A DNA stretch of 21,868 bases from Candidatus Thorarchaeota archaeon SMTZ1-45 (GCA_001563335.1 LRSL01000113.1:1-21868); one strand, 5' to 3'. Numbered from the stretch's first letter, positions 2,851 through 21,402 are shown. The notes: generated by a model not told the origin, from the letters alone. Numbers and translations: made by a program.

Positions 2851-2876
2851 TTTGATTCCGCTGTTACATATGCAGA

Positions 2877-2938: not shown

Positions 2939-3022
2939 CACTCTCTCAATAAACAGGAAGATTCAAATTTCTGATTCCATTTTGCTAATGTCTTATTCAG
3001 ACAAGCCTGAAGTGTGAGTTCT

Positions 3023-4911: not shown

Positions 4912-5027
4912 AAGACCATTCTCCTAACAATGAACTCAATACTTCAGTTACGTGATTTATTTAATAATCGGTTGATACTGAGGTTCTTCACAATCAAATA
5001 ATAACCGGAGATTCTGTATATACCCAG

Positions 5028-5060
5028 CTCATACGAGGTAACAATAAGCAAGGGGCTTTC
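5028..5060 (+). repeat. Promoter repeat P4 (diverged)
   Basis: ctcatacgaggtaacaataagcaaggggctttc versus native ctcatacgaaggaactataagcagggtactctc. Confidence 0.75.
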
Positions 5061-5776: not shown

Positions 5777-5906
5777 GCTCCCACTCAGAGTGTTTCTTGA
5801 AGCGGTATGCTATAAGGATAACTGCGAATGGATGCTTTCAAGTTTTTAGTAGGAGAAAGTCATGCAGTTACAATTCGAGTGTAGATCGCATAGAAGTGTT
5901 ATAAAA

Positions 5907-5950
5907 GCCTCAGTCGTAGGAACTATAAGCAGGGCACTCTCCCCACTCAC
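5907..5950 (+). repeat. Promoter repeat P3
   Basis: gcctcagtcgtaggaactataagcagggcactctccccactcac versus 8707-8750 gcctcatacgaaggaactataagcagggtactctcccctctcgc. Confidence 0.95.
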
Positions 5951-5981
5951 TTCAAGAGGAGAAAACAGGTGAATTGAATCT

Positions 5982-6716
5982 TCACCTAATGAATGGCGGA
6001 GGAACTAATCTGAAGTAATAGGATAGTAGTACAAGGAAGACCCAGAAGATGAGTGTAGACACAAGGTATCTAAGAGGCCGCCCACGCGCCAAGGCGCTGA
6101 AATGAAGTGATTCAGGCAACTGCAGTCGAATTGGTAGAATGAAGGGAGTGCTTTGCTGGTACTGCACAAATGAATCTCCAAACTCTTTACTCAACCAGTA
6201 ATCCTCAAGGTCAGCAACCAGAATTAATAGAAATAGAACTGAACACACAGACACCAGATCACCAGGTCTTGTGGCTGGAAGAAGCAGACGTGAGAAACTG
6301 GTCTTAAGTGGAAAAGCTAGAAGGTACAACATGAGTAGGATTCCCAAGTGTTGAGGATGCCGTACCCACCCATAGGGGCCGTATGTGACTAGACCTTCTT
6401 TATGTATACGTGCCCTAGCAAGAGTGACTAGCCCATAACAGAGAAGGAATAGACCAAAGCAGAACATAAGAACTTGCGAGAACCGGAATGCAACTGCTAT
6501 TCCGGTTTCAAGTCCTCCAGGAGAAGAAGGATCGAACATATACACATAGCCAGTCCAGCTATTTGAGTAGGGAACTATGTAGCTGAGGAGCTCCCACGAG
6601 AAATACCAGCTAGCTAGTATCCAGACCATTGGTGTCAGTATGCCAGCGACAATTGGCAGATAGAGGCCAACAGATATAGCGGCAGCGGTTATGTTGCTAA
6701 CGACCCTTTTTAACAC
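5982..6716 (-). CDS. Isoprenylcysteine carboxyl methyltransferase (Ste14/ICMT/PEMT)-family membrane protein
   Basis: Signature LVTYGPYGWVRHPQHLG, then LED..LSKEFG..F..YQ..TPFILP; multiple TM helices. Confidence 0.85.
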   Translation of the reverse strand: MLKRVVSNITAAAISVGLYLPIVAGILTPMVWILASWYFSWELLSYIVPYSNSWTGYVYMFDPSSPGGLETGIAVAFRFSQVLMFCFGLFLLCYGLVTLARARIHKEGLVTYGPYGWVRHPQHLGILLMLYLLAFPLKTSFSRLLLPATRPGDLVSVCSVLFLLILVADLEDYWLSKEFGDSFVQYQQSTPFILPIRLQLPESLHFSALARGRPLRYLVSTLIFWVFLVLLSYYFRLVPPPFIR

Positions 6717-6834
6717 TAGCTGAGTCCTCCCTCACCGAAAAGATGCTACAGTGCATATGCTATATTTCGACCTCCAATGTCAAGAAGATTTTGTTCTCGG
6801 CACGCTAGACAGACTCTAAGGGTATATCCGCCCA

Positions 6835-6865
6835 ATACGAGGGAACTATAAGCAGGGCACTCTCC
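6835..6865 (+). repeat. Promoter repeat P2
   Basis: atacgagggaactataagcagggcactctcc; the 20-bp core is identical to P1 and P3. Confidence 0.95.
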
Positions 6866-6907
6866 AAACTTTCTCTATAGGGATACAGAGCAGAGGTTAT
6901 CTATTAT

Positions 6908-7525
6908 TTACGGTTGTTTGACCATAACCCAATGGAGGATGTTGGCTATGGGCAATGTGAATGAGTCAATAACATCGAAGCCGTAATGTTTGTAAATTTG
7001 TACAAGACCTTCATCCTGAGTTTCAAGGACGCAGGGTTTGTTTTGTGAACTACACATTGAGAGTACAGGTCGGACAAGCTTGCTTGCAAGACCTTTCCCT
7101 TGATAATCTGGATGAACTGCCAGTGATCCTAAATACCAATGGGGCTCAGAAATACACTCATCTCTCTTACTGACTACAAAACTCTCTACTTCTCGCATTC
7201 TTCTTAGAGTCTTGGAACCAGCGGCTCGATACAGTCCTATCCCTCCCGTTCTAATTGCTCTCAACCAACTGAACTCATTGTACTCCGATTGTGTAAGGAT
7301 AACAACGCCCTCAATGTTTTCAGATGTAGCAAGGATTTTTCCATAGAGGAAGCCATTCTTAACACGGTAATTAAAGAACTTTGGAAGGAATCTCAACCTG
7401 CTTTCTGGTTCCGGTAAGAAATAACACAATAGATGATCATCAAAAAAAGCCTGAACTAAAGTTTCAGTGACCTTCTTTACGTCCCTTTTTGTTACATGGT
7501 AGGGTTCAGGACTCGTGTTTTGCAT
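6908..7525 (-). CDS. GNAT-family N-acetyltransferase
   Basis: WYLGSLAVHPDYQGKGLASKLV (acetyl-CoA motif A), then LET...YKHYGF. Confidence 0.9.
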   Translation of the reverse strand: MQNTSPEPYHVTKRDVKKVTETLVQAFFDDHLLCYFLPEPESRLRFLPKFFNYRVKNGFLYGKILATSENIEGVVILTQSEYNEFSWLRAIRTGGIGLYRAAGSKTLRRMREVESFVVSKRDECISEPHWYLGSLAVHPDYQGKGLASKLVRPVLSMCSSQNKPCVLETQDEGLVQIYKHYGFDVIDSFTLPIANILHWVMVKQP

Positions 7526-7622
7526 TGGTAGTCAGTTTTTATTAAAAGACCTTTCTGATATACCTTAGGATGGCTTGAGAATTAAGATTCATGAATATTA
7601 CTCTTCTTCAACGCAGGACAAA

Positions 7623-7653
7623 CCTTATGCGAAGGAACTATAAGCAGGGCACT
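7623..7653 (+). repeat. Promoter repeat P1
   Basis: ccttatgcgaaggaactataagcagggcact; ends 6 bp before the stop codon of the convergent epimerase gene. Confidence 0.95.
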
Positions 7654-7659
7654 TGTCTT

Positions 7660-8598
7660 TCATGGTCCGGATTGGTTTAGGACTGTGCCTTCATGTAGAT
7701 TCTCGATCGTGGCTTTGAGACCCTCTTTATAGGAGGGGTACTCCAGCTCCCAGTCAAGCTCTCTTTTGGCCTTCTCGTTAGTCACCACACAGTCTATCTG
7801 CATAATGCTTAGAAGGAAACCACCAAGGACGATTCGAGCGATGAACATTGGAATAGTTCGTGGCTTTGGCAGTCCCATGCACTCCGCCATGTGCTCTGTG
7901 AATTCTCGCGTGGTACACGGAGTATCGTCAGCTATGATGAATGATTCACTCACAGGCTGTTTCTCTACTGCAAGAACAAAGGCCTGAGCACAGTCATCGA
8001 CATGAACCCTCGGGATGTGGTTGTCACCTCTCCCGAAGACGCCGGAGCGCCCATTCTTCATCATCTCGTACATCTTGAGGAACTGGCCACCCGGTCCATA
8101 GATCTGACCCGGGAGCATTATGATGAGTGGTTGTCCCTCCTTCTTTGCCCTAGCAATAAGCACGTCAGCCTCTTCGCCAGCCTTCGTGAGACCCGTCCTG
8201 ACAAGTGGCCAAGACTCGTCAGCTACCTGTCCCTGCTTAGTGCTGTAGGCAGTGCCAAGAGTCAGTATGGTCGGGCAGTCAAGTTTCTTCCCGATAGTGA
8301 GAGCGGTCGACACGAACTTGGTCGTCCTCTGCTTAATCTGAGCGAACTTGCTCTTTGATATTCTTCCGAACTCGAGAGGCATGGCTACAGAAATCACACA
8401 GTCCTGGGAACTTATGTTGTCTATGAACGCGTCCGGCTCCATAAGGTCGCCGACTATTATTTCGATGCTCCTGTTACGAAAATATTCCGCCGCGTCAGTT
8501 CGACGGGTGAGTATTGTGACCTCATGACCATGCGACGAAAGTCTGGAAACTATCCTTGAACCCAGAAATCCAGTACCACCAAGCACAAGTACTCTCAG
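7660..8598 (-). CDS. NAD-dependent epimerase/dehydratase (extended/atypical SDR)
   Basis: (M)RVLVLGGTGFLG Rossmann motif, PGQIYGPG and VHVDDCAQA. The start is probably CTG at 8598 (GGTGA SD 6 nt upstream, in-frame stop just before) rather than GTG at 8586. Confidence 0.9.
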   Translation of the reverse strand: MRVLVLGGTGFLGSRIVSRLSSHGHEVTILTRRTDAAEYFRNRSIEIIVGDLMEPDAFIDNISSQDCVISVAMPLEFGRISKSKFAQIKQRTTKFVSTALTIGKKLDCPTILTLGTAYSTKQGQVADESWPLVRTGLTKAGEEADVLIARAKKEGQPLIIMLPGQIYGPGGQFLKMYEMMKNGRSGVFGRGDNHIPRVHVDDCAQAFVLAVEKQPVSESFIIADDTPCTTREFTEHMAECMGLPKPRTIPMFIARIVLGGFLLSIMQIDCVVTNEKAKRELDWELEYPSYKEGLKATIENLHEGTVLNQSGP

Positions 8599-8706
8599 AA
8601 TGAGTCACCGATTGGCAGTCATAAATAAGAGATATTTAACTTGTTCATTGCAGTATTTTTAAAACGTCACAAAGAAGGTTTCTCATTTTGCGAGGAGGGA
8701 TAAGAC

Positions 8707-8769
8707 GCCTCATACGAAGGAACTATAAGCAGGGTACTCTCCCCTCTCGCCCGCTGGCAAGACTCTAGC
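8707..8769 (+). promoter_or_regulatory. Putative BRE/TATA promoter of the acyl-CoA dehydrogenase gene (source of repeats P1-P5)
   Basis: Purine-rich CGAAGGAA (BRE-like) directly before CTATAAGC (TATA-like, ~8723-8730), ~60 bp upstream of ATG 8786. GAGGT SD at 8776-8780. Confidence 0.7.
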
Positions 8770-8785
8770 AATCAAGAGGTAGTTT

Positions 8786-10030
8786 ATGATGCATTTTGAA
8801 GAGTCGGATGAAGAAAAGATGTTCCGCGAGGCAGTGCGTGAGTTCGCTCAGAAATACGTCGCGCCTGCGTGGAAAGAGTATGATGAACACACTCACGAGG
8901 TTCCGCGAGACCTCATCAAGAAGATGGCAGACCAGATGTTGTGGGCACCCACTGTGTCAGAGGAGTATGGTGGAGCCAATCTCTCTTGGGTGATGTCATG
9001 CATCGCCGCAGAGGAGCTTGCGAAGGCAGACCTCTCCATTGCACTCCCAGTCATGTACCTTGTTGAGGCTTCATGGGCGTTTATCTTTGACAAGTATGGC
9101 ACTCCCGAGGCGAAGGCTGAGATCCTCCCGCGTGTCACAAAGGGAGACCTGTTCTTTGGTATCGCAACCACTGAACCAACTGGTGGCTCTGACCTCGTCA
9201 ACTCGACCAAGACCACGATCAAGCCAAAGGGTGACAAGTTTGTCATCAATGGTGAGAAGGTGTATATCTCCGGCGTGGCTGAGTCCGAGAAGTACGGTGG
9301 TGTATACTGGACACTGGCTAAGTCGGACCCGAAGGGCGACCACAAGGCATTCGATGGGTTCATTCTCCCGCTGAACATGGGTGATGGACTGCATCCTGGA
9401 ATCACAACCACGCTGTTTGAGGACATGGGGCGGATGGGTGTGTCCTGTGGTGGATTCAACATCGAGAATGTGGAGATTCCGAAGCACTACATCATCGGCG
9501 AGCGTGGGAGAGGATTTTATTATGCCATGATGGGTTTCAGTGCAGCCCGCGTGTTAATCGCAGCCACTTGCCTTGGTGCCGCACAAGCATGTTTTGACAT
9601 TGGTGTTGACTATGTTAAACAACGCAAGCAGTTCGGACGACCACTCGCGGCTTTTGAAGGCATAATGTTTGAAGGAGTCGATTCATGGATGGCAATTCAA
9701 GCTGACAGACATCTAACATATCATGCAGCCTGGATCATGGATGAAGTCTATAGTAGAAACAACAAAAACTACGACCATCTCGATATTGCCAGGTACACCG
9801 CTGCAGCCAAATACAAAGCACCACACGATGCTCTTGACATCATTACTCGTGCCATGACTTGGCACGGTGCCTTTGGATACTCCAAGGAATGTCCCCTCGA
9901 AGCTTCTTATAGGGGTGTTCGTTCATACACTGTTGGAGCTGAAGGGGGGTCTCATATACAGAAAATCGTCATGGGTCGAGAAATTTTCGGACCCGAATGT
10001 CTTCCATATCGTCAGGAAAAGCAGATGTAA
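8786..10030 (+). CDS. Acyl-CoA dehydrogenase (anchor gene of the array)
   Basis: Family motifs: SEEYGG, FGIATTEPTGGSD, INGEKVYIS, IGERGRGF, R-x-QFGRPL, HGAFGYSKE and catalytic-region GAEGGSHIQK; 414 aa. Confidence 0.96.
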   Translation: MMHFEESDEEKMFREAVREFAQKYVAPAWKEYDEHTHEVPRDLIKKMADQMLWAPTVSEEYGGANLSWVMSCIAAEELAKADLSIALPVMYLVEASWAFIFDKYGTPEAKAEILPRVTKGDLFFGIATTEPTGGSDLVNSTKTTIKPKGDKFVINGEKVYISGVAESEKYGGVYWTLAKSDPKGDHKAFDGFILPLNMGDGLHPGITTTLFEDMGRMGVSCGGFNIENVEIPKHYIIGERGRGFYYAMMGFSAARVLIAATCLGAAQACFDIGVDYVKQRKQFGRPLAAFEGIMFEGVDSWMAIQADRHLTYHAAWIMDEVYSRNNKNYDHLDIARYTAAAKYKAPHDALDIITRAMTWHGAFGYSKECPLEASYRGVRSYTVGAEGGSHIQKIVMGREIFGPECLPYRQEKQM

Positions 10031-10044
10031 TCAAAATCAATGAA

Positions 10045-10064
10045 AAGGGAGCCTATGCTCCCTT
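10045..10064 (+). terminator. Hairpin after the ACAD stop codon
   Basis: aagggagc-ctat-gctccctt, a perfect 8-bp stem followed by a T-rich run. Confidence 0.7.
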
Positions 10065-10079
10065 CTTTCTATTTATATC

Positions 10080-10382
10080 TCACTCTTCATATTCGTATAG
10101 ATTCTTGTTGCATTCTGGACATTGTTCAGGCGGTTTTTCTCCCTGATTAAATTTTAAATAGCATCCTCCAGACCTACATTCAACCCAATAGATATCATCA
10201 GAGTCAGGAGGTTCAAATTCAGCAAAGTGGTCATCAACAGGACCCATAAGTCTGAATCCTTCTTCCTTTAGCTTCGTAATAAATTTCAATCTGTCCTTGA
10301 GAGCCTTAATCACATCAGTGATGCTCTTACAATTATAGCCAGTAATCATTTGTTTGAAAAAGAATGCAAGGGCAATTTTCAT
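10080..10382 (-). CDS. Small hypothetical protein with C-terminal Zn-ribbon (paralog A)
   Basis: YWVECRSGGC...CPEC; aligns along its length with the neighbouring ORF. Confidence 0.75.
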   Translation of the reverse strand: MKIALAFFFKQMITGYNCKSITDVIKALKDRLKFITKLKEEGFRLMGPVDDHFAEFEPPDSDDIYWVECRSGGCYLKFNQGEKPPEQCPECNKNLYEYEE

Positions 10383-10414
10383 GTATTATTCCTGTATTAG
10401 GACACATTTCATCC

Positions 10415-10768
10415 TCATTCATGTGGCTTCACTCTATGACACTGGTTGCAGCTTGTTGGTTGCTGTGTTCTTTTTAGCAACTCTAGATGATATCCACAAG
10501 TCCTACAACGACCCCAATAGAATCCCTTACGCTTTGGAGGGATAATCTCGAGATAATCCTCAGCATCTCCCTCTCGGACTCTGTAACCTTCATTCTTCAA
10601 TTGATTGAAATATTCAATCTCTTTCTCAATTGCATGGATTATATCATCAATCGACTCACAATCTGCTTCAAGACTTAGGAATTTGAAACGATGGATACTC
10701 GGTATACAGTCAAGACATCCACAGTCGAATGAATCTAACCCAGTATTTCTACAACGTTCCTCATACAC
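10415..10768 (-). CDS. Small hypothetical protein with C-terminal Zn-ribbon (paralog B)
   Basis: YWGRCRTCG...CNQC, plus an extra N-terminal Cys cluster (C...DCGCLDC). Confidence 0.75.
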   Translation of the reverse strand: MYEERCRNTGLDSFDCGCLDCIPSIHRFKFLSLEADCESIDDIIHAIEKEIEYFNQLKNEGYRVREGDAEDYLEIIPPKRKGFYWGRCRTCGYHLELLKRTQQPTSCNQCHRVKPHE

Positions 10769-10950
10769 TCACCAACACCTCAAAAGAAAATGGAGTACTG
10801 TCGTATTTAGCCTCAACGGATTTTCAGATTCTGAGAGTTCTATCCCTTTTTCTTCATATTTTCAGAATTTTCAAGGGGATCTCCTGATGCATATCGACAG
10901 ACTGCGTTTTCTATAGTATTTCTGTGAACAGTAGTGCCATAGTCATCAAA

Positions 10951-10995
10951 TTTGGAGCAAATTATCTGCTGTACAAGCAGGAGAAACAAATGTAG
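10951..10995 (+). repeat. ACAD tail copy T1 (short, degenerate, no clear hairpin)
   Basis: tttggagcaaattatctgctgtacaagcaggagaaacaaatgtag = FGANYLLYKQEKQM*. Confidence 0.85.
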
Positions 10996-11086
10996 AATCT
11001 TTGAGTGAGTTTAGCTGAGATAGATGTAAATTACATGTATGTAGAGATGTTTCAAACTCTTATTCGAAGAGGGGGTACAGCAAACC

Positions 11087-11542
11087 TTGTCTAGCGAAAA
11101 ACTTCATGATGCTTTAAAAAATTGGATAATGGAAAAAGCTGAACTAAAGAAAGATGCAAGGAAAAACAAATACTACGATCGTGTCTTTTCAGGGGATATG
11201 GAGCCAGTTGACATCAGGGTCAGAATGAAGCATTTTGATTATCGACCAGATATTGTTCTAGTTCGGAAAGATAGAAAGTATCTTGTAGAGATTGCTTTAA
11301 GCGAGGATTGGCGTGCATTAGTCGGAGAGCTGTCACTTGCTAAAGCTTGTCGTGCTGCAAATGTACTTTTCATCGTTTCTGGATGGGATAAAGATGCGCT
11401 TGATGATATTTTGACTGTAATGGGGGAGGTTCTTGACTACGAAAAGTGGTATTATATCATCCTGGATGACAATGATGTAAATAATTTAGAAAAAGCAAAG
11501 AAAGTTGTAAGTAAATGGCTGACTGATTGGGAATGGATCTAA
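11087..11542 (+). CDS. Hypothetical protein, possible PD-(D/E)xK nuclease fold
   Basis: N-terminal helix S..LHDALK, then YRPDIVLVRKDRKYLVEIA (PD...E-x-A). Fold assignment is from motif only. Confidence 0.55.
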   Translation: MSSEKLHDALKNWIMEKAELKKDARKNKYYDRVFSGDMEPVDIRVRMKHFDYRPDIVLVRKDRKYLVEIALSEDWRALVGELSLAKACRAANVLFIVSGWDKDALDDILTVMGEVLDYEKWYYIILDDNDVNNLEKAKKVVSKWLTDWEWI

Positions 11543-11553
11543 ACTATGACCTA

Positions 11554-11645
11554 ATGTCACGAAAGATATTCAGACCAGACTATCTGCCGTACAGGCAAGA
11601 GAAACAGATGTAGTTTCAAGTTTCAATCGAGAGAGGTGTTCCTCT
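11554..11645 (+). repeat. ACAD tail copy T2 plus hairpin
   Basis: 11554-11613 = MSRKIFRPDYLPYRQEKQM*, then tttcaagtttcaatc and agagg-tgtt-cctct. Confidence 0.95.
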
Positions 11646-11714
11646 TTATCCCCTCATTTTTATATTGATTACTAGATTGGGTGGAGTGTGTTTCGTTCTC
11701 TGGTGGGGATTGAG

Positions 11715-13682
11715 ATGAAGGACCAAGATAGAAAACCGGACCCATTACTTCGAGCGATAGACATCACCATTATCATCTTGATTATCTCCTGCCTTGGCGT
11801 AGGAGTCATCGTGGGATATAATAAACCTTCAAGAGGGACAATAGAACTAATCGAGGGAACTGAGATTAGTGGGGTTCCTAGCCAGAATGTAACGAAATCA
11901 TTCTCTGCAACCGACTCAGACTTGGTTTTCCTGAATGAACCGCCAAGTGTGAATAGTCACTGGTTTTATTCATCTGACTATTATGGGGATGAATGGGGTG
12001 TCCCCGTCGTTGAATCAAGGAAGGCGAGGTCGTCCCTCTCCTCAGAGGGACTGTTGCTAGAACTGAGTGGAGCCGAGGTTCGTTTTACAACTGGAGTGAG
12101 GATTCCCCTGAACGCATGTAGCACTTTGAATTATGCAACCTCTTTGGGAGTTCTCAATGGACAGGTGGAGATAAACTTCAGAGTGTGGTTCAGAAAGAGT
12201 CCTTATACAGTCATGGGTGACAACCTAACTAGGGAGAAGAGCATAAGTCTAACTCCAGCTAATGGGACTGCAAATCTCTCATTCAATATTCCTATTGAAA
12301 GTTTCAATGCCTCTGTGCCTCAGTTGTCTATAGAGTCTTGGGTCCGTATCACAATAGAATCTCAGTTTCCGACTCGATTATTAGTTGGCAATGTAAGTAT
12401 AAGTGGTCAAGCAACATATGACCTTTGCAGGGTTTCAGTTGATGTCCAAGCGCTTGATGGGAGAAGCATATATGCACCTCCGTATATGACGGATCTTTGG
12501 CCCTACCCCCTCATCAACCTCACAAGACAGGACGCTCCTAGTACATCTTCATTGTTTTACATCCTGCGTTCAAATGATGTCCTCTATCTCGAGCCCGGAA
12601 ATTACTCGGGATTTGCGTACTGGTCGCCGAGAATAGTAAGTGATTCTGACAACCCTTATTGGCAATCAAGGTTAGCCATCAATATCACGATTGCCACAAA
12701 CGAAACAGCGATCTGGGAGATAAGGATGCAATGTACTAGATTGTTCATCACAATAGATCCTATGATTCCTGAAACGTTTGTTCAAATACAAACTGTGGAC
12801 GACCACTTATACTATTCAATTGGTAGTTTTAATGCTTCAGTGAGTGATTTCATCTACCTACCAATATCAAATGGTTCAGATTCTTTCGATATTTTTATTA
12901 AAACGAATCCCAGCACTCAATACAACTATAGAGATTTGCCCGTAGTTTCCTATTTCCCAATGGAGAATCCACTCGAAATTGATTCCAACCATGAGTGGCA
13001 TCTCGAAGTAAAGCTTCCAATCGATGTTTTCTTGGGAGTTGGCTTCATTGGCGAAGATATAACAATTATAAATCTAGGAGTTATTACGCTACTTCTTATG
13101 ATTGGGCGAGTCCTGATTCACTTCAAGAAGATAGGTTTCATTTCGATACTAAAAGACCCACGCCTTATTCCGTTCGTGATTCTGTGCATTAGTCTGATCT
13201 TTCCTTGGGCCGAATACTCACACACCACATCAGAATGGTTGGGATCGGACTCTACAATCCTTTTCACCAAAATAAGTCCGCTTGCCCTACTTCTAATGTG
13301 GAGCAAAGATAGCATCATCATTTTGCAACCGGGAATATACTGGTTTGAATCTTACATCCAATATCATATAGGATGGATGATAAGTATTACATATGATGCA
13401 TGCGCATTATTCCTAAGTTCTGTCTTCCTATTCTGGATTCCCGTTATCTACTGCTTTACTACGATTGGTAGAGGCGACAAGAGGAATGCAGACTATTTAC
13501 TGTATTATCTACTTGCATTAGGAGCACCGACATTGCTAGCCTGCTTGCCATTCATACCAAATTCGAGGTTGATTTTTGAGGGATTGGGAATAGGAGCATA
13601 CCTTGCAATGTCAACAATCCCAGTGTTCCTGTTGGTGAATTTGCTGTATCGATTTAGGACTCGTTTGATGGATACTCAATAA
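11715..13682 (+). CDS. Large hypothetical membrane protein with extracellular domain
   Basis: N-terminal TM, long beta-rich region with many N-x-S/T sequons, and ~5-6 C-terminal TM helices. ATG 11715 follows a GGTGG SD; an alternative GTG start lies at 11688. Confidence 0.8.
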   Translation: MKDQDRKPDPLLRAIDITIIILIISCLGVGVIVGYNKPSRGTIELIEGTEISGVPSQNVTKSFSATDSDLVFLNEPPSVNSHWFYSSDYYGDEWGVPVVESRKARSSLSSEGLLLELSGAEVRFTTGVRIPLNACSTLNYATSLGVLNGQVEINFRVWFRKSPYTVMGDNLTREKSISLTPANGTANLSFNIPIESFNASVPQLSIESWVRITIESQFPTRLLVGNVSISGQATYDLCRVSVDVQALDGRSIYAPPYMTDLWPYPLINLTRQDAPSTSSLFYILRSNDVLYLEPGNYSGFAYWSPRIVSDSDNPYWQSRLAINITIATNETAIWEIRMQCTRLFITIDPMIPETFVQIQTVDDHLYYSIGSFNASVSDFIYLPISNGSDSFDIFIKTNPSTQYNYRDLPVVSYFPMENPLEIDSNHEWHLEVKLPIDVFLGVGFIGEDITIINLGVITLLLMIGRVLIHFKKIGFISILKDPRLIPFVILCISLIFPWAEYSHTTSEWLGSDSTILFTKISPLALLLMWSKDSIIILQPGIYWFESYIQYHIGWMISITYDACALFLSSVFLFWIPVIYCFTTIGRGDKRNADYLLYYLLALGAPTLLACLPFIPNSRLIFEGLGIGAYLAMSTIPVFLLVNLLYRFRTRLMDTQ

Positions 13683-13691
13683 AGAACTTAT

Positions 13692-13785
13692 ATGGGCAGA
13701 GAGATATTCGGACCGGACTATCTTCCATATCGCCAAGAGAAACAGATGTAGTTTCTAGAAATGGAGAGAGAGGGGATTCCTCTCT
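13692..13785 (+). repeat. ACAD tail copy T3 plus hairpin
   Basis: 13692-13751 = MGREIFGPDYLPYRQEKQM*; hairpin agagagg-ggatt-cctctct (13767-13785). Confidence 0.95.
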
Positions 13786-13862
13786 TGCTCTTTACTTACG
13801 ATTGACTTTTCTCATTTGAGCCTTTTTTGAAAAAAGAGAAATAGAAGCTAGAACAAGTAGGA

Positions 13863-14060
13863 ATGATCAAAATGACGAGGGATATGTGGAAGGTAGCCAG
13901 GTGGATAGCAATCGTGTATTTGATACTTGGAGCTGTATTTACAGCCTTGTGGTGGTTTGGATTCATTGTACTTGGTGCTGGCAATCCGGTTTCGGAGTTC
14001 TTCTTTTATTTCTTCTTGCCAGTATGGGCTTTATTTACATCCTTTATTCCACCATTATGA
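13863..14060 (+). CDS. Small hypothetical membrane protein (2 TM)
   Basis: 65 aa, strongly hydrophobic; the only plausible gene between T3 and T4. Confidence 0.6.
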   Translation: MIKMTRDMWKVARWIAIVYLILGAVFTALWWFGFIVLGAGNPVSEFFFYFFLPVWALFTSFIPPL

Positions 14061-14136
14061 TATGATTGAAAACTTGGATTTCCCCTTCATGTTATCAACA
14101 CTTGCAAGCGGCAACTACAGGTGCATAAATGCTAAT

Positions 14137-14237
14137 ATTGTCATGGCACGCGAGATATTCGGACCCGACTATCTACCGTACAGGCAAGAAAAACAGATGT
14201 AGATTCAAACTTTCAAACGAGAGAGGAGCTTCCTTTC
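14137..14237 (+). repeat. ACAD tail copy T4 plus imperfect hairpin
   Basis: IVMAREIFGPDYLPYRQEKQM* (stop at 14202); gagagg-agctt-cctttc. Confidence 0.95.
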
Positions 14238-14268
14238 GAAGAAAAGTGGAGTCTGGACTGTCTACTAG

Positions 14269-14374
14269 AAGGTGGTAATGGCACGGGAGTTACTGGGAGC
14301 AGAAAACCTCCCCTACCGCCAAGAGAAACAGATGTAGATTCAAGCTTCAAATCGAGAGAGGGTTCTCCTCTCTC
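14269..14374 (+). repeat. ACAD tail copy T5 plus hairpin (divergent allele)
   Basis: KVVMARELLGAENLPYRQEKQM* (stop at 14337); gagagagg-gttct-cctctctc (14354-14374). Confidence 0.93.
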
Positions 14375-14384
14375 CTCACTATTT

Positions 14385-14894
14385 CTATCTCTGAAAGAAC
14401 TTCCGTGTGATCCTCTTTTCCTCTGAGAATTTCATTTCAGCCTCATCAAGGACAGAACGATAGCCTTCCTGTTCTTCACCTCTCATTTTGGCGGCTTTCA
14501 TTTGATCCAGTTTGTCTTCCCAGAATTCCACAATCTCAGGATGATTTTCAAAATAGTCTTCCAATCTATCATGTATCTGCCTAAGAAAGCCCTGGGGGTC
14601 ATACGCAATTCTCGACAAGATAGTTGTGTACCAAAGAAATGGATAAGTTTCAATAGACTGCAAAACCATATTCAGTGGTTCGACACTCATGTCGATCTTG
14701 ATTCCTCTTCGGTACTCCTCTATGAATTGATGTGTTTCAATGCTCTCTGAAATCACCCCGAGATCAACGTCAGAATCAGGTCTAATATCACCAGTCACTA
14801 GACTTCCAGCAATTTCAATACCAACTATTGATGGGTCTTTCTTGAGTTCCTCGACAACTTCTTCTGCAATTTTTTCCTGTAGGGTTTCCATCAT
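14385..14894 (-). CDS. Nucleotidyltransferase domain protein (Pol-beta/MNT/KNTase-like)
   Basis: IAGSLVTGDIRPDSDVDLGVI contains the GS...DxD motif; third Asp in GIKIDMS. Confidence 0.85.
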   Translation of the reverse strand: MMETLQEKIAEEVVEELKKDPSIVGIEIAGSLVTGDIRPDSDVDLGVISESIETHQFIEEYRRGIKIDMSVEPLNMVLQSIETYPFLWYTTILSRIAYDPQGFLRQIHDRLEDYFENHPEIVEFWEDKLDQMKAAKMRGEEQEGYRSVLDEAEMKFSEEKRITRKFFQR

Positions 14895-14918
14895 CTACAC
14901 AACTTTGGCTCATTCAAC

Positions 14919-15941
14919 TCATTCAACAGTATCGTTGAATAGGACTATCCTGTAACGTGCCTTGTTCTCCTTTACCTTCCGAATCGCCTCGTTTACCTTC
15001 GTCATAGGCATCAACTCCACTTTAGGCATGATGTTGTACTCCTGTGCGAACGAGAACATCTCCCGCATTGTGGTCCGATTGCCGAGGAAAGAACCAGTGA
15101 TCGACAGTTGACGTGCCACGAGTTCAGTCGAATTGAACTCCACGTCTGGAAAGCCGATAAGGACCAGCCTGCCCTTTTTCTTCAAGATATTCAATAGTGC
15201 CTCCCAGTTGATTTTGTTTGAGGCGGTGCACAGAAGCAGGTCAAAACTAAGCATAGCCTCTCGCAAGCTTGTCTGGTCGTCCGAAGAGAGGAAGTGGTCT
15301 GCACCAAAGGAAAGCGCCTCCTGTTTCTTCTCCGGAGAGGAGGAAATGGCTGTGACATCGTAGTCGAGAGCCCGTGCGAACTGTAATGCAAGGTGACCCA
15401 GACCTCCCACACCGATGATACCAATTTTCCGCGCGGGTTGCGTTGCGTACGAACGAAGCGGCGAGTAGACCGTGACCCCGGCACACGTTAACACAGCGGC
15501 CACCTCAGAAGGCATGTCGTCAGGCAGCTGATAGACAAAGCGGCTATCCGCGATGACGGAGGACGAGAAGCCACCATAGGGGACCCAGGTTCCTGATGGA
15601 ACAATGTCCAAGCAAAGCTGGTCTTCTCCCTGCAAACACCACTCACATTGCATACAAGACCGACCCTGCCAGCCGATGGCAACTCGATCCCCTTCCTTCA
15701 AACCGGATGCCGCATGGCCCACTTCCGACACATGTCCAACGATTTCATGACCTGGGACGAAGGGAAAGGTGGTTATATCGTAGTAATTGTCGATGGCATG
15801 GATGTCGCTATGGCACACACCGCAGTGCGTGACAGAAACCCTGACATCATGCTCCCCCAGTTTGGGTGGCTCGTAGGTGATTGGCTCGAGCGGTTGCCCT
15901 ACCGCCTTCGCTGCGTATCCCAAGACTTTTGAAGAAGACAT
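14919..15941 (-). CDS. ahr: Zn-dependent NAD(P)-dependent alcohol dehydrogenase / aldehyde reductase (CAD family, Ahr/YjgB-like)
   Basis: CGVCHSD, PGHEIVG, structural Zn site CMQCEWC...C, GVGGLGHLALQFA and the C-terminal ARYRIVL. Confidence 0.9.
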   Translation of the reverse strand: MSSSKVLGYAAKAVGQPLEPITYEPPKLGEHDVRVSVTHCGVCHSDIHAIDNYYDITTFPFVPGHEIVGHVSEVGHAASGLKEGDRVAIGWQGRSCMQCEWCLQGEDQLCLDIVPSGTWVPYGGFSSSVIADSRFVYQLPDDMPSEVAAVLTCAGVTVYSPLRSYATQPARKIGIIGVGGLGHLALQFARALDYDVTAISSSPEKKQEALSFGADHFLSSDDQTSLREAMLSFDLLLCTASNKINWEALLNILKKKGRLVLIGFPDVEFNSTELVARQLSITGSFLGNRTTMREMFSFAQEYNIMPKVELMPMTKVNEAIRKVKENKARYRIVLFNDTVE

Positions 15942-16043
15942 TCGCAGAACCTCTCCTGTTCAGTAGCGCGCATCCAATGGAACAGCTGAGCATGCTGTCG
16001 GACGTTGATTGAACAGAGAATATTAGTATTCCGTTAAACAGAG

Positions 16044-16149
16044 AAGATTGTCATGGCACGAGAGATCTTCGGACCCGACCTTCTGCCGTACAGACAAGAG
16101 AAACAGATGCAGGTTCAAGTTTCAAACCGAGAGAGGTTCTTCCTCTCTC
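16044..16149 (+). repeat. ACAD tail copy T6 plus hairpin (stop mutated TAG>CAG)
   Basis: KIVMAREIFGPDLLPYRQEKQMQ; gagagagg-ttctt-cctctctc (16129-16149). Confidence 0.95.
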
Positions 16150-16243
16150 AATCCCTTTTCTTTATCGACTCAATATTTTGTTCGAACAATTGATAAGATA
16201 ATATATTATCGGTGGAAACCGCGATACCTGCAATAGCTTTGAA

Positions 16244-17821
16244 TTGGGAGGAGAAAGGTTGAGAGAGAAGCAATTCAGAGTAGTCTTCCTATCTATCGCT
16301 TTGTGTGCATTACTCACAATACCTCAGATGGCGACAACAGGTAGGCAACAATCAACGAATGTCTTCAACTTGGGTCAAGACTCAGGCATACCGTATGAGG
16401 GAGCTGAAGTGGTTATTCAAGAGGGGAACTCCCGGACAAAATACAAATTCGTGGCAAGCTCATCATTCCAAGGAATTCCTGATTTCCGCATGGGAGCCTG
16501 TTTCTATAGTGTCTACACATGGCGCGATCTCCCATATCTGAACACGTGGATGCCAAACATCATTGAATTAGGCATATGGCGCTTCGATACATGTGTGGAC
16601 GAGAATGAACCACCAATTTATTGGGAATACAACAATGAACAAGAATTTCCTGAGGAATACGACCAATTTATCGATGGGTTGAATGAAAATGGATTGACCG
16701 TTAATTACATGCTGCACTTCTGGGACAAGACTGGCCATGCACTTGGGGAGGAACTGTCGACACCACGCTTCCAGTCTGAGGAGCAAATCCAAGATTTCTT
16801 GAACTACACACGCTTTGTGGTCAGTCACTTTGAAGGCCGTGTTCAATACTACACGATATGGAGTGAGCCAGATGCTTGTCCTGGAATCAAGTGCATTGAG
16901 GTGGAGGACTACATCAATCTCGTAAATCGAACTGTGCCAGTCATTCACGAGGAGGACCCTAAGGCAAAGGTGTCCATAGGCCCTAATGTTCTCTTCTTTG
17001 CGCAGGACTACCTCTCAGCTATCATTGAATCTGACATCATGACCATGGTAGACGTGATTCAATGGCATGGCATCTATAACGTGTTGCCTAACGATCAGTT
17101 TTATGGTGATTATTACTACCAATACCCTGCGATTGTTGAAGGAATCAGACAAACAGCTGCTGCCCATGGTTTCGACGGAGAGTGTTGGGCCACCGAAATT
17201 GGTTATAGTGCAGAGGAAAATGCTCCTGATCAGCCCTGGGGAGTAGTGGAAACCAGCAAACAAGCAGCCAAATATTCTTCACGCTCACTTGTCAAGCACC
17301 TAGGAATGGACATGGGCGTGGCTATGGGGAACTTACGATATGACAACCTTGAGATAGACCCTTGGTCGCAGCGTGCACTAGGCAACCTTTACAAAGTTTT
17401 GGCAGGGACTAACCCAGTCAGTCTTGCTGTTGAATTTGAGGATGAACCCACAAACGCCGTAACTAACTCATTTGCGTTGCCTGATGGCGACACGTTATTC
17501 GCACTATGGACTGATAGCGAAACAATTGAAAATGACCTAGGTGTAAGGACAACCCTTACATTTCCTGACCTGCCTGCTCAAAAAGTAACAGCGATTGATG
17601 TACTCAATGGCTTCGAGCAGGACCTCATCATCGGAGAAGTAAATGGGGATCTAGTCATCCGCAACATCTTCGTTATGGACTATCCAATCATCTTACTTTT
17701 CGATAGCGATGCTCCTTTTACTCTTGAACCAGATCTGAGTCCGTTTATGGTGGTGGGATTTGGTTCAGTGGGTGTTGTTACGATCTTGATTGTCATTCTT
17801 TTCATTAAAAAGAAAGAATGA
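16244..17821 (+). CDS. Secreted, C-terminally anchored clan GH-A glycoside hydrolase-like protein (GH5/GH39-like)
   Basis: Signal peptide, YYTIWSEPD (acid/base motif, cf. WNEPD), IQWHG, CWATEIG (nucleophile motif), C-terminal TM and KKKE. Confidence 0.75.
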   Translation: MGGERLREKQFRVVFLSIALCALLTIPQMATTGRQQSTNVFNLGQDSGIPYEGAEVVIQEGNSRTKYKFVASSSFQGIPDFRMGACFYSVYTWRDLPYLNTWMPNIIELGIWRFDTCVDENEPPIYWEYNNEQEFPEEYDQFIDGLNENGLTVNYMLHFWDKTGHALGEELSTPRFQSEEQIQDFLNYTRFVVSHFEGRVQYYTIWSEPDACPGIKCIEVEDYINLVNRTVPVIHEEDPKAKVSIGPNVLFFAQDYLSAIIESDIMTMVDVIQWHGIYNVLPNDQFYGDYYYQYPAIVEGIRQTAAAHGFDGECWATEIGYSAEENAPDQPWGVVETSKQAAKYSSRSLVKHLGMDMGVAMGNLRYDNLEIDPWSQRALGNLYKVLAGTNPVSLAVEFEDEPTNAVTNSFALPDGDTLFALWTDSETIENDLGVRTTLTFPDLPAQKVTAIDVLNGFEQDLIIGEVNGDLVIRNIFVMDYPIILLFDSDAPFTLEPDLSPFMVVGFGSVGVVTILIVILFIKKKE

Positions 17822-17883
17822 ATCATACTCGCACTAGTTCAGATTCAATGATGGATCGTAACTGCTAGATTAGCTGTACCGAG

Positions 17884-17990
17884 AAGATCGTCATGGCGCG
17901 TGAGATATTCGAATCTGAGTATCTGCCGTACAAGCAAGAAAAACAGATGTAGTTTCGAATTCAGTAGAGAGAGGTTCTTCCTCTCTCTAC
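17884..17990 (+). repeat. ACAD tail copy T7 plus hairpin
   Basis: KIVMAREIFESEYLPYKQEKQM* (stop at 17952); perfect 11-bp stem gtagagagagg-ttctt-cctctctctac (17964-17990). Confidence 0.95.
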
Positions 17991-18076
17991 GTTTCTTTTC
18001 AATACAATGGACAACGTGCAAATCTTATTAGAATCCACTTTGCATTCAAATCGGTTTAATACTGGAGGAAGTCTAA

Positions 18077-20264
18077 TTGAAGAGTAGGACTGCTACGATT
18101 CGCAACATCGTAGTAGTTGTCGCTGCGATCACTCTCATTTCAAGTTCCATTCCTTTTGATAGTTATTCAAATCCAACTGCGAGAAACGATATGATGAACA
18201 GTTCAGAGAAACCAATCAATGTCTACCTTGCGAATGTTCTACATGGACCCATCATCATAACCTCAAACAATGACTTCTCTGCACAGGGATTCCTAGGAAG
18301 TGGCTCTGAATCGAGTCCATATCTCATTGAGAACTACAGCATCAACACGACAGGCACCTGTATTTCTATATCGAACACTGATGCGCATTTCATAGTCCGG
18401 AAATGTCTACTCACGGGAGGGGATGATGGAGATGGGATACTCATGGACAATGTGATGAATGGGGAGATAAGTAACAACAGCATATCTCAAAAGGACAGAC
18501 CCCTACATCTTCTCCTTTCGTCTAATAATATGATAGTTAATAACACGATCTCAGAAAACCGCTTACAAGTGACCCTCCACTCCTCTACGAATAACGAGGT
18601 CCTTGAGAACAATATTTCTGACAACTCAGGAGGTCTCTACCTCTTATCGTCTCCAAACAACCTTGTCGCTAATAACAGCATCCTAGCAGGTTTTGGGACT
18701 GGTATAATTCTTGAAAACTCCCCTGAATCAACACTTACAAAAAACATCATCTCAAACAACCAAGGAGGAATTTACCTTCATAGCTCATCAAGAAGCATCA
18801 TTACAAATAATACATTATCAGAAAATATCGGATATGGAATCATTCTTGATGACTCATCGGAAGTCAGACTTTCATCAAACATCTTACTAAACAATGGATT
18901 TGGTATTCTGGGAAATAGCGTTGAGGAATGGAAGCACGATATTTCTACTGACAATCTTGTGAATGGAAAGCCCATTGGTTACTTCTGGGATTTGCATGGG
19001 GAACGCATAGACGAGAATCCATATTATCTGATGATCTTCGCAAACTGTACTAACATCACAGTAGAGAATATCGTCTTCGATAGAAGTAGCATTACCTTAG
19101 GATTTTCATCAAACTGCACACTGAATAATAACACCTCCTTAGAGAGTCAAGGATTTGGAATCTCCTTTTACTACTCCGTGGACAATAAAGTGACCAACAA
19201 TAGATGCAATAGTCTTTCTTTGAGGTATTCATCAAACAACGACTTGTTTTACAACACAATCTCCGGGACTAGTTATGTTGGCGTAAATCTCAGAGTATCC
19301 TCGTACAACAGAATTGAAGGAAACACTATTTCGGGATTTGAAGATGGTCTGTGGCTCTATGAGGAATCTACCCATAACCATGTGGTGAACAACACAATAT
19401 CTGAATCCCTTATGTATGGAGCAAATCTCCTTTACTGGTCCAATAATAATACGTTCTCAGACAACCATATCGACGGCGTGCATCTTCACGAAGCACATAG
19501 CAATGATTTCGTGAACAACACCTTTTCAGGTGGAGATATCGCGGGAGTAGACATGTTCGGTTCTTCAAATATCAAGATATTGAACAACAATATTTCTGGG
19601 AATAGTATCGGTATGTCACTCAAGTGGTGTCTTTCTAAATTCCGGAACACACGACAACCTACTGTGTCTCAATGTCTTTGGGAACAATGGAGATGCCGAT
19701 GCACGAGATAACGGTAATGGAAATCAGTGGAACAGCACAGGAATTGGCAACTATTGGTCAGACTATCCCGGAACTGGAGCCTACTACATTCCGGGAGATG
19801 CTGGCGCCATCGATTACCATCCCCACGGATACACTGACACAGAACCACCTATAATCAGCAATCCAGCAGATATTGAGTACATTGAGGGGACCTTGGGTAA
19901 TAGCATCACATGGAGTCTAACTGAAGATCATCCCTCTCACTATGTGATATATCGGAATGGTATTCTGGTTGATTCAGGAGATTGGGATAGTGATTTGATT
20001 AACACAAGCATCGATGGCCTGAATCCAGGAGCCTACTACTTCACAATTGTAGTCTTTGATATCTACAACAATTGGAGCAGTGATGAGGTCATTGTCACTG
20101 TGTTAGCAGCGGAACCTACTTCAATTCCAACAGTAACTACGACATCAACCATTCCCTCTGAGAATGATATTCCTCATCCTATTCTGGTTGTGATATTAAT
20201 CGCAGAAATTGGAGTCGTAATGATACTGCTGGTCTTACTCTCTAAACAACAACGTGGACTGTGA
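18077..20264 (+). pseudogene. Frameshifted NosD-like parallel beta-helix surface protein with Ig-like domain and TM anchor
   Basis: Frame 1 (from 18077) has Asn-rich beta-helix turns up to GNSIGMSL (~19620). A shifted frame continues SSGVFLNSGTHDNLLCLNVFGNN...GIGNYWSDY...DTEPPIISNPADIEYIEGTLGNSITW and runs straight into ORF 19893-20264. Confidence 0.85.
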
Positions 20265-20276
20265 AAAAGAGAATAG

Positions 20277-20379
20277 ATTGTCATGGCTCGTGAGATCTTC
20301 GGACCTGACTATCTGCTGTACAGGCAAGAGAAGCAGATGTAGTTTCAAACTTCAATCGAGAGAGGTTCGCCCCTCTCTC
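20277..20379 (+). repeat. ACAD tail copy T8 plus hairpin
   Basis: IVMAREIFGPDYLLYRQEKQM* (stop at 20342); gagagagg-ttcgcc-cctctctc (20358-20379). Confidence 0.95.
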
Positions 20380-20445
20380 CTCCACTCATTTTTCATTCAT
20401 TGATCCGCATAGGGTGTCCATCATTCGACCTGAGTCAAAGCTAGC

Positions 20446-21192
20446 TTAGAATAGAACAACCAATCGAATCGTACCCCATACTAAATGCCACCATATGTAG
20501 TAGATAATCCGAAACCAGTACATTGAGAGAAAGTCATACTTCTTGAGGATGGACAGCTGGACGTAGCTAAAAAGAAACAGACGTATACCCTCGATCGCTG
20601 AAATCCATATTGGATGTCCAGTACCACTGAAATCAAGCTGATATAGAGGCTCCAAGAGAGAGATGATGACAATGATAACGAGAAAGATTCGGTCGAAGTC
20701 CCTACCTTTGAATACTGAGGTGAGAAGGGCCAGTAAGAGAGTAAGAGGGAGGAGATGAAAGAGAATCTCCACAACAAAGCCCATTGTTGGATAGAAGAGA
20801 AGGGATTTCGGTAGGAGAACATTGGTGTCCTCAGGATAGGGAAAAACTAGATCTACCAAGATTGCACCAAGTGCGAATGGAACTGTCGGGAGTGAGATGA
20901 GGAGCAGGCTTTTCAGATTCTCTCGTTTGTAGATATCAACCCATTCCTGTGAGAGTAGAATGGACACCAACCCTAGTCCAAGGACGATGATGATTGAGAT
21001 CATGAACACAGGATTGATACTCCCGAAAAAGATTTCGAATCTAGGAGTTCCAATCAAATAGAGTGCTACCGTGAAGAAAAGTATAATGAGTGAAATCGTG
21101 ACAAAGACACCTATCTGCAATTTTTCGGTTGACAATAGTTCCTTCAGTGATGATAGTCTATGCATCCGCTCATCTATGGGATCCATTTTCAT
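20446..21192 (-). CDS. Hypothetical multi-pass membrane protein (weakly CPBP/CAAX-protease-like)
   Basis: About 7 TM segments; VVEILFHLLPL and YYIWWHLVWG motifs. Confidence 0.7.
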   Translation of the reverse strand: MKMDPIDERMHRLSSLKELLSTEKLQIGVFVTISLIILFFTVALYLIGTPRFEIFFGSINPVFMISIIIVLGLGLVSILLSQEWVDIYKRENLKSLLLISLPTVPFALGAILVDLVFPYPEDTNVLLPKSLLFYPTMGFVVEILFHLLPLTLLLALLTSVFKGRDFDRIFLVIIVIISLLEPLYQLDFSGTGHPIWISAIEGIRLFLFSYVQLSILKKYDFLSMYWFRIIYYIWWHLVWGTIRLVVLF

Positions 21193-21260
21193 GCATGATG
21201 AACAGCTTCACTCCCGCAAAAGTATTGTGCCGTGGTTCCATAAAGATGAGGTGCGTAATG

Positions 21261-21360
21261 GTCATGGCACGCGAGATCTTCGGTCCAGACTATCTGCTGT
21301 ACAGGCAAGAGAAACAGATGTAGTCTCATTTTGTATTTCGAGGGAGATTCATGCTCCCTC
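21261..21360 (+). repeat. ACAD tail copy T9 plus hairpin
   Basis: VMAREIFGPDYLLYRQEKQM* (stop at 21323); gagggag-attcatg-ctccctc (21340-21360). Confidence 0.95.
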
Positions 21361-21402
21361 ATTCTTCATTTTGGATTGTAGGTGTATAGTAGTAGCGAAC
21401 TC

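Follow-up and report, generated by a model that had tools for sequence, protein, structure and literature searches.

Copies of both ends of an acyl-CoA dehydrogenase gene alternate with gene cassettes in Thorarchaeota

In a 21,868-nt stretch of DNA from Candidatus Thorarchaeota archaeon SMTZ1-45 (GCA_001563335.1 LRSL01000113.1:1-21868), referred to in its entirety as the window, the 3′ end of one metabolic gene recurs between genes of other kinds, which raises the question of how such an arrangement arises. The gene encodes an acyl-CoA dehydrogenase (ACAD) of 414 amino acids with Pfam Acyl-CoA_dh N, M and C domains (8786-10030, + strand), and it anchors an array on either side. Behind its native tail lie nine displaced copies of that tail, every copy on the ACAD strand, with short gene cassettes between them. 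We favor, at a little under an even chance, an explanation in which cassettes are gained and lost through recombination at the two ends of ACAD, with catalysis in trans and with tails recurrently serving as the working end of the gene.

The repeated gene tail and its left edge

A search of the window for repeats recovered a 94-nt family consisting of the native tail and eight copies, to which a 52-nt family adds one truncated copy. A profile built from these tails gave 10 matches in the window at E≤1e-3, on the + strand only. A first-pass annotation, made from the sequence alone, had listed nine displaced ACAD tails, and both searches bear out this count. The native tail, T0 (9966-10072, +), comprises the last 19 codons of ACAD (MGREIFGPECLPYRQEKQM), a TAA stop, a hairpin with the arms GGGAGC/GCTCCC, and a T-rich run. 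A full copy in the window carries a few bases of the K-I-V codons, 19 codons with the consensus MAREIFGPDYLPYRQEKQM, a stop, a hairpin about 15 nt farther on, and a T-rich run. The hairpin, mostly of the form GAGAGAGG-N4-CCTCTCTC with the T-rich run behind it, has 8-bp arms and a 4-5-nt loop and is present in most of the 133 copies that were aligned. Several hairpin sequence types are linked by compensatory changes, with one pair being AU in 81 copies and GC in 25. Judged by these features, the hairpin with its T-rich run looks like a terminator.

All displaced tails in the window lie on the + strand. Tail and hairpin are both present in T2 (11551-11655), T3 (13691-13793), T5 (14273-14379), T6 (16047-16154), T7 (17888-17990), T8 (20277-20382), and T9 (21259-21365), the last with a hairpin of the GAGGGAG/CTCCCTC type, and the hairpin is weakened in T4 (14138-14238); these eight were located with the profile. 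T1 (10951-11001), recovered by both the repeat search and the profile, is a truncated stump of about 50 nt in which the hairpin is absent. The description of the copies as C-terminal tail plus terminator thus holds for most of them and not for T1. The nine frame ends had all been placed correctly, except that T6 has CAG at 16110-16112 in place of a stop, leaving the frame open at that point. The array may continue past the window end, beyond T9.

The left edge of the repeat was measured by extending the tails leftward in frame against 13 ACAD C-termini, which yielded 166 measurements, 23 for native and 143 for displaced tails. Similarity to ACAD stops between 19 and 27 codons from the stop in 104 of the 143 displaced tails, with a mode at 21 codons (36 copies) followed by 22 (19 copies) and 23 (15 copies). 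Shorter stumps account for 38 of the 143, and the longest reach, 37 codons, is attained by one tail. In the window itself the edges span from about 16 nt upstream of the methionine ATG to the ATG itself, which agrees with the earlier placement of the edge near the codons for K-I-V-M and with the idea of a preferred but imprecise junction; similarity extending far upstream of the tails is not seen. The short gaps between a cargo stop and the next tail (11542/11554, 13682/13692, and 20264/20277) also match the list of open reading frames (ORFs).

The right boundary is illustrated by two related loci. A native tail-plus-hairpin module (L006:3315-3417) is 91% identical to a displaced one (L009:3037-3139), and the DNA beyond differs. 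From this comparison, the 103-nt module appears to behave as a unit with its right boundary after the hairpin. The two loci were also considered as an empty and an occupied version of one site; as the likeness is confined to the module and the cargo beyond it differs, they do not represent an orthologous empty site. An inverted repeat at the left edge (GAAGAT...ATCTTC) was entertained as a recombinase core and rejected. The window copies alone had seemed to show compensatory changes in it, and over the larger set the key position is paired about as often as after shuffling (14/24 native tails versus 13.6 shuffled; 45/123 displaced tails versus 48.0 shuffled).

Arrays in related genomes and at the 5′ end

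Relatives were retrieved by a genome-contig search with the ACAD protein, with the tail peptide among the patterns, giving 72 loci that include tail-only contigs. They are contigs of metagenome-assembled genomes (MAGs), many of them broken at repeats, and the related ACAD genes come from contigs labelled Thorarchaeota, ‘Hermodarchaeota’, and ‘Promethearchaeota’; the window ACAD is 81-91% identical to those of the Thorarchaeota MAG loci L001-L041. At the same threshold, the tail profile detects 201 copies, all on the ACAD strand. Ten belong to the window, and the other 191 are spread over 60 of the 72 loci, no locus having more than nine. Chance is excluded because the 191 further copies occur in so many loci and always on this strand. 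When loci are grouped by assembly, at least one displaced tail is found in 36 of 55 species-level genomes (162 copies in total), and the remaining 19 are mostly represented by contigs ending in or shortly past ACAD. Four loci (L015, L017, L020, and L033) have 4.5-10 kb behind ACAD in which the profile detects no displaced tail. Arrays lie directly behind a full-length ACAD in L002-L007, L009, L013, and L016, as would be expected from the first-pass annotation.

The 140 tail-to-tail intervals have a median length of 1,386 nt. At a cutoff of at least 80 aa, 7 of them contain no ORF, 90 contain one, and 30 contain two, and the ORFs inside these intervals are oriented both ways, 90 on the + and 121 on the − strand. 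Altogether there are about 170 cassettes, mostly single-gene, over the 60 loci and the window.

A second, mirrored array exists on the 5′ side of ACAD and had been overlooked in the first-pass annotation. Its reference is P0 (8696-8782, +), a promoter-like segment with the 5′ untranslated region (UTR) just upstream of the ACAD start, which holds GGAACTATAAGCAGGG. Displaced copies of this upstream segment lie between cassettes at 7611-7688 (P1), 6819-6897 (P2), and 5896-5973 (P3), followed by a weak copy with E of about 1e-3 at 5020-5060 (P4) and a more diverged one at 2876-2931 (P5). All six profile matches in the window are on the ACAD (+) strand, as are 35 more copies in 22 loci. None of these 35 lies downstream of the ACAD start, and a single locus has at most four. 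An epimerase cassette adjoins ACAD in the window and in L039, and is about 6 kb from ACAD in L036. As the P repeats mirror the tail repeats, both ends of the ACAD transcription unit would be docking points.

Cassettes behave as modules. The alcohol dehydrogenase (ADH) of the window recurs between tails in L035 and L002 at approximately 80-82% identity, without the nucleotidyltransferase that accompanies it in the window and with different neighbors. The cassette between T3 and T4, encoding a 91-aa ORF, recurs in L050 (window 13701-14229 versus L050 2187-2721, 89.6% identity). Thus, cassettes of the window do occur at other array positions in relatives. Two cassettes that are neighbors in L042 have three others between them in L064. 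Across species-level genomes, identity reaches 92-99% for some cassettes, whereas the ACAD DNA is about 82-86% identical.

Pfam assigns the cargo to dehydrogenases, glutamine synthetase, acetyltransferases, proteases, NosD/beta-helix surface proteins, transporters, and regulators. Recombinases were sought with Pfam among 24 window ORFs and 311 of 389 locus cluster representatives of at least 100 aa; the other 78 representatives came from array-less loci. No integrase, transposase, resolvase, or Cas1 was found in these 24 window ORFs and 311 locus proteins, which upholds the earlier statement that the cassettes lack an integrase. The only nuclease-type matches are a small HNH protein (L004), a PD-(D/E)XK protein (L025), a TatD DNase (L050), a LAGLIDADG segment in a 737-aa protein (L020), and PIN toxins (L016 and L061), and none of these recurs. 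An unknown enzyme could be hidden among the cassette proteins that have no Pfam family. Defense-type cargo includes a PIN-MazE pair forming a cassette (L016:6525-7237) and a PIN protein (L061:4274-4690), and in L026 genes for the paired S and R subunits of a type I restriction-modification system are found downstream of ACAD (6650-11186).

In the window, the cargo follows the order given in the first-pass annotation, with some of its functional assignments lacking a Pfam counterpart. Cassette 1 (10073-10950, −) encodes two small paralogous Zn-ribbon proteins (10080-10382 and 10415-10768) with no Pfam family above the cutoff and no relative among the 72 loci. Cassette 2 (11087-11542, +) encodes a 151-aa protein, previously labelled a putative nuclease, and cassette 3 (11688-13682, +) a 664-aa membrane protein, neither with a Pfam family. 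Cassette 4 (13794-14137, +) is short, its 91-aa ORF running into T4, and only about 34 nt (14239-14272) separate T4 from T5, as in an empty cassette. Cassette 6 (14385-15941, −) carries the Pfam-assigned nucleotidyltransferase (14385-14894) and Zn-dependent ADH (14919-15941). The 525-aa secreted or anchored protein of cassette 7 (16244-17821, +), earlier called a glycoside hydrolase, has a weak, sub-threshold GH1 match. Cassette 8 (18077-20264, +) contains a NosD/beta-helix protein (18077-19711), apparently truncated and with an odd tail, followed by a 123-aa C-terminal piece that has a transmembrane anchor (19893-20264) and resembles C-terminal pieces beside NosD genes in L003, L004, L039, and L059; the gene at 18077-20264 may have been split by a frameshift. 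Cassette 9 (20446-21192, −) encodes a 248-aa membrane protein with no Pfam family. A scan of the window for tRNA and Rfam families found none.

Small Ras-family GTPases are typical of Asgard archaea, and genes of this type lie near ACAD in two relatives (L003:6240-8252 and L011:7474-8133). Locus L049 sits midway in an 87-kb contig, with tails at 3105, 10015, and 10909, and includes a 167-aa non-ACAD ORF ending in a tail-like peptide (2658-3161). Locus L069 belongs to a complete 3.16-Mb chromosome, with tails at 1091 and 2809. Contigs end inside ACAD or a tail in L010, L012, L021, L022, L027, L028, L043, L055, L060, and L065. As short-read assemblies are broken by repeats, Asgard MAGs probably contain fewer arrays, and less of their cargo, than the organisms do. 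When the loci were compared with themselves after masking of the tails and P copies in a search for other families of gene-tail repeats, only intragenic beta-helix repeats and paralogues emerged. Dispersed repeats of the MITE or REP type were likewise set aside, as within the window and the retrieved loci all 201 copies occupy one strand and are clustered in arrays.

Coding constraint, joints, and competing explanations

The displaced tails bear the signature of coding sequence. Among the 36 pairs formed by the nine window tails, the proportion of synonymous differences (pS) is 0.67, versus 0.10 for nonsynonymous differences (pN). In 123 displaced full-length tails compared with their consensus, differences number 765, 276, and 264 at codon positions 3, 1, and 2, respectively. 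Frame and stop are kept in 92 of these 123 tails, 71 of which begin with ATG, and a stop is in place in 145 of 175 tails (TAG in 113, TAA in 25, and TGA in 7). In L003, the native and both displaced tails encode one peptide, and the printed sequences differ only synonymously; peptide variants common to the tails of one genome, with differing synonymous sites, occur in L003, L013, and TM2M.152. Because the differences are mostly synonymous, the tails are not copies decaying in place. From the substitution pattern, it would appear either that they have mostly spent their history as the working end of ACAD or that they are selected where they are located. A comparison of native with displaced tails for conservation at synonymous sites was set aside as confounded, the two sets being drawn from different samples of genomes. 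The native tail of the window (9971-10030; MGREIFGPEC..., TAA, GGGAGC hairpin) matches its own displaced tails at only 39-48 of 60 nt and resembles the L003 tails instead; for the displaced tails of the window, the native tail of the same genome ranks between 10 and 24 among 24 natives.

To locate the joints, the flanking tails of cassettes common to two genomes were compared piece by piece. The sequence just left of a tail follows the left cargo (82-97% in 11 high-identity pairs and 50-71% in 5 others), and the stop and next 90 nt follow the right cargo (82-98% in 6 of 12 left-hand tails and 49-80% in the other 6). In the four clearest right-hand tails (L054/L066, L045/L053, L042/L064, and L071/L072), identity falls just where the repeat begins on its left. 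As these breaks occur without homology farther left, homologous recombination alone falls short as an explanation. The type of hairpin and the type of stop codon are associated (counts 37/7/2/10, Fisher p=2.7e-5). In L054/L066, the cargo is 98.7% identical and the tail has 6 differences in 60 positions, all of them third positions.

According to the explanation that we favor, ACAD would be the docking gene of a two-sided, additive cassette island. On the 3′ side, one- and two-gene cassettes would be inserted and lost by recombination within a module of about 105-120 nt, composed of the last 19-23 ACAD codons, the stop, the terminator-like hairpin, and the T-rich run. Insertion would join foreign DNA to the gene near the K-I-V-M codons, such that the gene keeps a complete tail and terminator and the earlier tail is displaced outward as an att-like remnant. 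Repeated rounds would generate tail-cassette-tail arrays of single orientation, and recombination between tails would delete or reshuffle cassettes. A mirror-image process on the 5′ side would displace copies of the ACAD promoter and 5′ UTR leftward. The tails would keep their coding capacity because a tail repeatedly becomes the working end of the enzyme and, as the cassettes contain no recombinase, the enzyme responsible would act in trans, being either host-encoded or carried on a separate element. This explanation makes sense of why all tails point one way, why their left edge is sharp, why they show a coding-type constraint, why cassettes are modular, and why mobility genes are missing. 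What we observe directly is the anatomy and distribution of the repeats, the statistics of their left edges, the signature of selection, the reappearance of cassettes in other arrays, and the lack of any recombinase in cis. We infer that catalysis is site-specific, in which direction the arrays grow, that there are circular intermediates, and what enzyme is at work. A fuller version, in which Thorarchaeota possess a hitherto undescribed gene-capture platform that uses the promoter segment and the coding tail and terminator of a metabolic anchor gene as attachment repeats, with a trans-acting recombinase moving single-gene cassettes and selection on the C-terminus preserving the sites, is put forward more tentatively, as a possibility well short of even.

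Several results weigh against recombination of this kind at the ends of ACAD. The first 30-40 nt of the tail are near the background for unrelated tails on both sides of a shared cassette (means of approximately 73-78%), with largely synonymous differences. Of nine left-hand tails read by eye, five share linkage with the right cargo over most of their length and two over part of it, and in the last two linkage starts only at CAAGAGAAACAGATG, a near-invariant block inside the tail. Variants of the tail core show no association with hairpin type (p=0.51). These comparisons indicate a minimum of two break zones, one where the tail begins on its left and one at the stop codon. They lie at the ends of a 60-nt coding core, and a tail core of 40 nt between them is often linked to neither neighbor; the two zones and the unlinked core are only partly explained by the proposed mechanism. 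The comparison of the displaced tails to attR-type remnants fares accordingly in part, as a sharp, preferred junction is present, whereas a remnant of this type needs a single crossover point and shared cassettes show two break zones. The cassette orders common to L042, L064, L054, and L071 can be derived from one ancestral order via deletions alone, and for this reason insertion is something that we infer rather than see. Displaced tails are nearest to the native tail of their own genome in 17 of 52 cases, versus about 2 by chance, which hints at in-genome copying or conversion that the proposed mechanism does not need. Two loci have tails with no ACAD in the upstream DNA examined (3.1 kb in L049 and 1.1 kb in L069). 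Neither a recombinase nor a pair of empty and occupied sites was found in the window and the loci of its relatives, and upstream of the tails there is no shared motif, either arm-type or ribosome-binding, beyond ACAD-derived bases.

Some of these points fit homologous recombination operating on its own, in which tails and promoter copies provide portable homology and no dedicated recombinase takes part: arrays would change when the DNA between two tails is deleted and when pieces of arrays are taken up from relatives, the arms being the 1.2-kb ACAD body on one side and a tail on the other. The two-sided layout around one conserved gene follows naturally from such a process, as does the lack of a recombinase in cis, and it would suit the left-hand tails that switch linkage in CAAGAGAAACAGATG, the stretch of best identity, together with the deletion-derived cassette orders and the likeness of tails to their own native. 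We nevertheless judge it rather unlikely. Tails of one array are only about 70-90% identical over 60 nt and would be poor substrates, the loss of linkage at the extreme left edge in the four clearest right-hand cases occurs where there is no homology beyond, and the many different junctions of cargo and tail at nearly one codon are left unexplained. The coding signature could instead mean that displaced tails function in place, with the small ORF (MAREIFGPDYLPYRQEKQM) and the terminator under selection, for example as a peptide or as a translated insulator or terminator module. The retention of frame, stop, and initial ATG in so many full-length copies, the strong third-position bias, the genome-specific peptide variants with synonymous differences, and the preservation of the hairpin through compensatory change would all fit. 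This appears quite improbable to us, given that about one-quarter of the tails are broken, truncated, or stop-less, that no conserved ribosome-binding or other motif lies upstream of them, and that the ATG is merely the conserved Met of an ACAD helix; we know of no role for a peptide like that of the displaced-tail ORF.

The two break zones, and the core that is often linked to neither flank, are also what might be expected if a transposase, a casposase, or a Cas1-like integrase made staggered cuts at the ends of the 60-nt core and thereby duplicated its target in the fashion of CRISPR repeats. Adjacent tails are identical over 45 nt in L009 and match at 44 of 45 positions in L072. However, adjacent tails in general match at 32.0 of 45 positions (82 pairs), versus 32.7 of 45 for non-adjacent ones (109 pairs), and only 2 of the 82 adjacent pairs reach at least 44 of 45. 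For cassettes that two genomes share at 94-99% identity, the two tail cores bordering the cassette in one genome are unlike each other, as with the L054 cassette shared with L066, and the Pfam scan detected no Cas1 or transposase. We therefore consider target duplication highly improbable and rejected it. Least credible of all is an origin of the tails in decayed tandem duplications of the whole ACAD gene. Its only support is that the sequence derives from ACAD, and it is refuted by the left edges, which lie 19-27 codons from the stop in 104 of 143 displaced tails and in no tail exceed 37 codons, by a tblastn search with the entire ACAD, whose matches inside the arrays are all tail-sized, and by a substitution pattern that is non-neutral.

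Known systems and what the arrays may mean

The nearest parallels are tandem integrative elements. PMC6563490 describes archaeal elements that integrate into 3′-distal parts of protein genes and re-use their sites to build arrays, and 10.1101/2020.12.28.424599 describes how repeated integration drives older elements into islands seeded by tRNA genes, with partial tRNAs remaining. Both provide precedent for the explanation that we favor. As portrayed there, Prochlorococcus tycheposon islands and Thaumarchaeota elements share with the ACAD arrays the direct repeats of a gene 3′ end with the target gene intact, the re-use of a site that pushes older material outward, and adaptive cargo that varies among relatives. 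They are unlike the present arrays in being kilobases to tens of kilobases long and in carrying tyrosine recombinases or casposases, with integrase fragments in remnants. Here, by comparison, the median interval is 1.4 kb, 90 of 140 intervals hold a single ORF, no recombinase domain occurs in 335 scanned proteins, and a second array is present at the 5′ end of the gene. Neither an integrase nor integrase fragments were detected by Pfam in the roughly 170 cassettes of the 60 loci and the window.

Integrons offer another comparison and have been reported in Archaea (PMC9668308). They resemble the ACAD arrays in consisting of mostly single-gene, recombinase-less cassettes with a structured repeat between them beside a fixed platform. 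Unlike in integrons, no IntI or other member of the Phage_integrase family lies by the platform among the 24 window ORFs and 311 of 389 representatives, and the repeat is a coding gene tail with an 8-bp hairpin rather than attC. By a simple pattern count, GTTRRRY, the R''/R' core of the imperfectly palindromic attC sites, occurs in 3 of 123 tails (70 nt on either side), versus 21 in one shuffle. Cassette genes of integrons mostly run one way and are read from a promoter in the platform, in contrast to the mixed orientation found here, and on these three grounds an integron was rejected.

A further group of relevance consists of DNA that lacks an integrase and accumulates at a single chromosomal site through the action of an enzyme provided in trans. 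IMEX elements use host Xer recombinases, and cis-mobilisable elements (CIME) belong to streptococcal integrative and conjugative elements (ICEs). Both resemble the ACAD arrays in this accumulation, and they differ in their target, which here is the two ends of a metabolic gene. The tail hairpin, with its short loop, is presumably unlike the 11-6-11 architecture of dif sites. Arrays at re-used sites are mentioned together with ‘Das et al., 2013’ in PMC6563490. In CRISPR arrays and casposon tandem insertions, repeat and unique insert also alternate beside a fixed ‘leader’ in one orientation; in the ACAD arrays, by contrast, adjacent repeats are not fresh duplicates, the inserts are genes, the repeat is coding, and the Pfam scan found no Cas1.

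Displaced 3′ pieces of a gene downstream of its full-length version are likewise a feature of the orphan C-terminal cassettes of tpsA, cdiA, and rhs polymorphic toxins (PMC3848433). In those toxins, each displaced end is a variable toxin domain that follows a conserved junction and is paired with an immunity gene. In the ACAD arrays, every displaced end encodes one and the same stretch of 19 residues, and what varies is unrelated cargo, namely metabolic enzymes and surface and membrane proteins, and orphan toxin cassettes were thus rejected. Our literature search found no description of ACAD-tail cassette arrays. Overall, the arrangement resembles an additive island formed by repeated use of one attachment site, and is integron-like in cassette size and in the absence of mobility genes. 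That integrase-free arrays recur in many related genomes points to a route of gene acquisition not described before.

Few mechanisms of gene flow are known in Asgard archaea, although such flow is relevant to the question of how genes reached the archaeal ancestor of eukaryotes. The ACAD arrays define by sequence a hot spot in 36 of 55 species-level genomes, with cargo that includes enzymes, beta-helix surface proteins, proteases, regulators, and toxin-antitoxin pairs. Because arrays break MAG assemblies, accessory genes would be under-counted in Thorarchaeota. The locus provides a tractable case for finding a trans-acting archaeal recombinase and would be a natural example of an attachment site kept intact through selection on a protein C-terminus. 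If the gene-capture platform of the fuller version is real, it would be an integron-like system assembled from different components and one of the chief paths of gene flow in an Asgard lineage.

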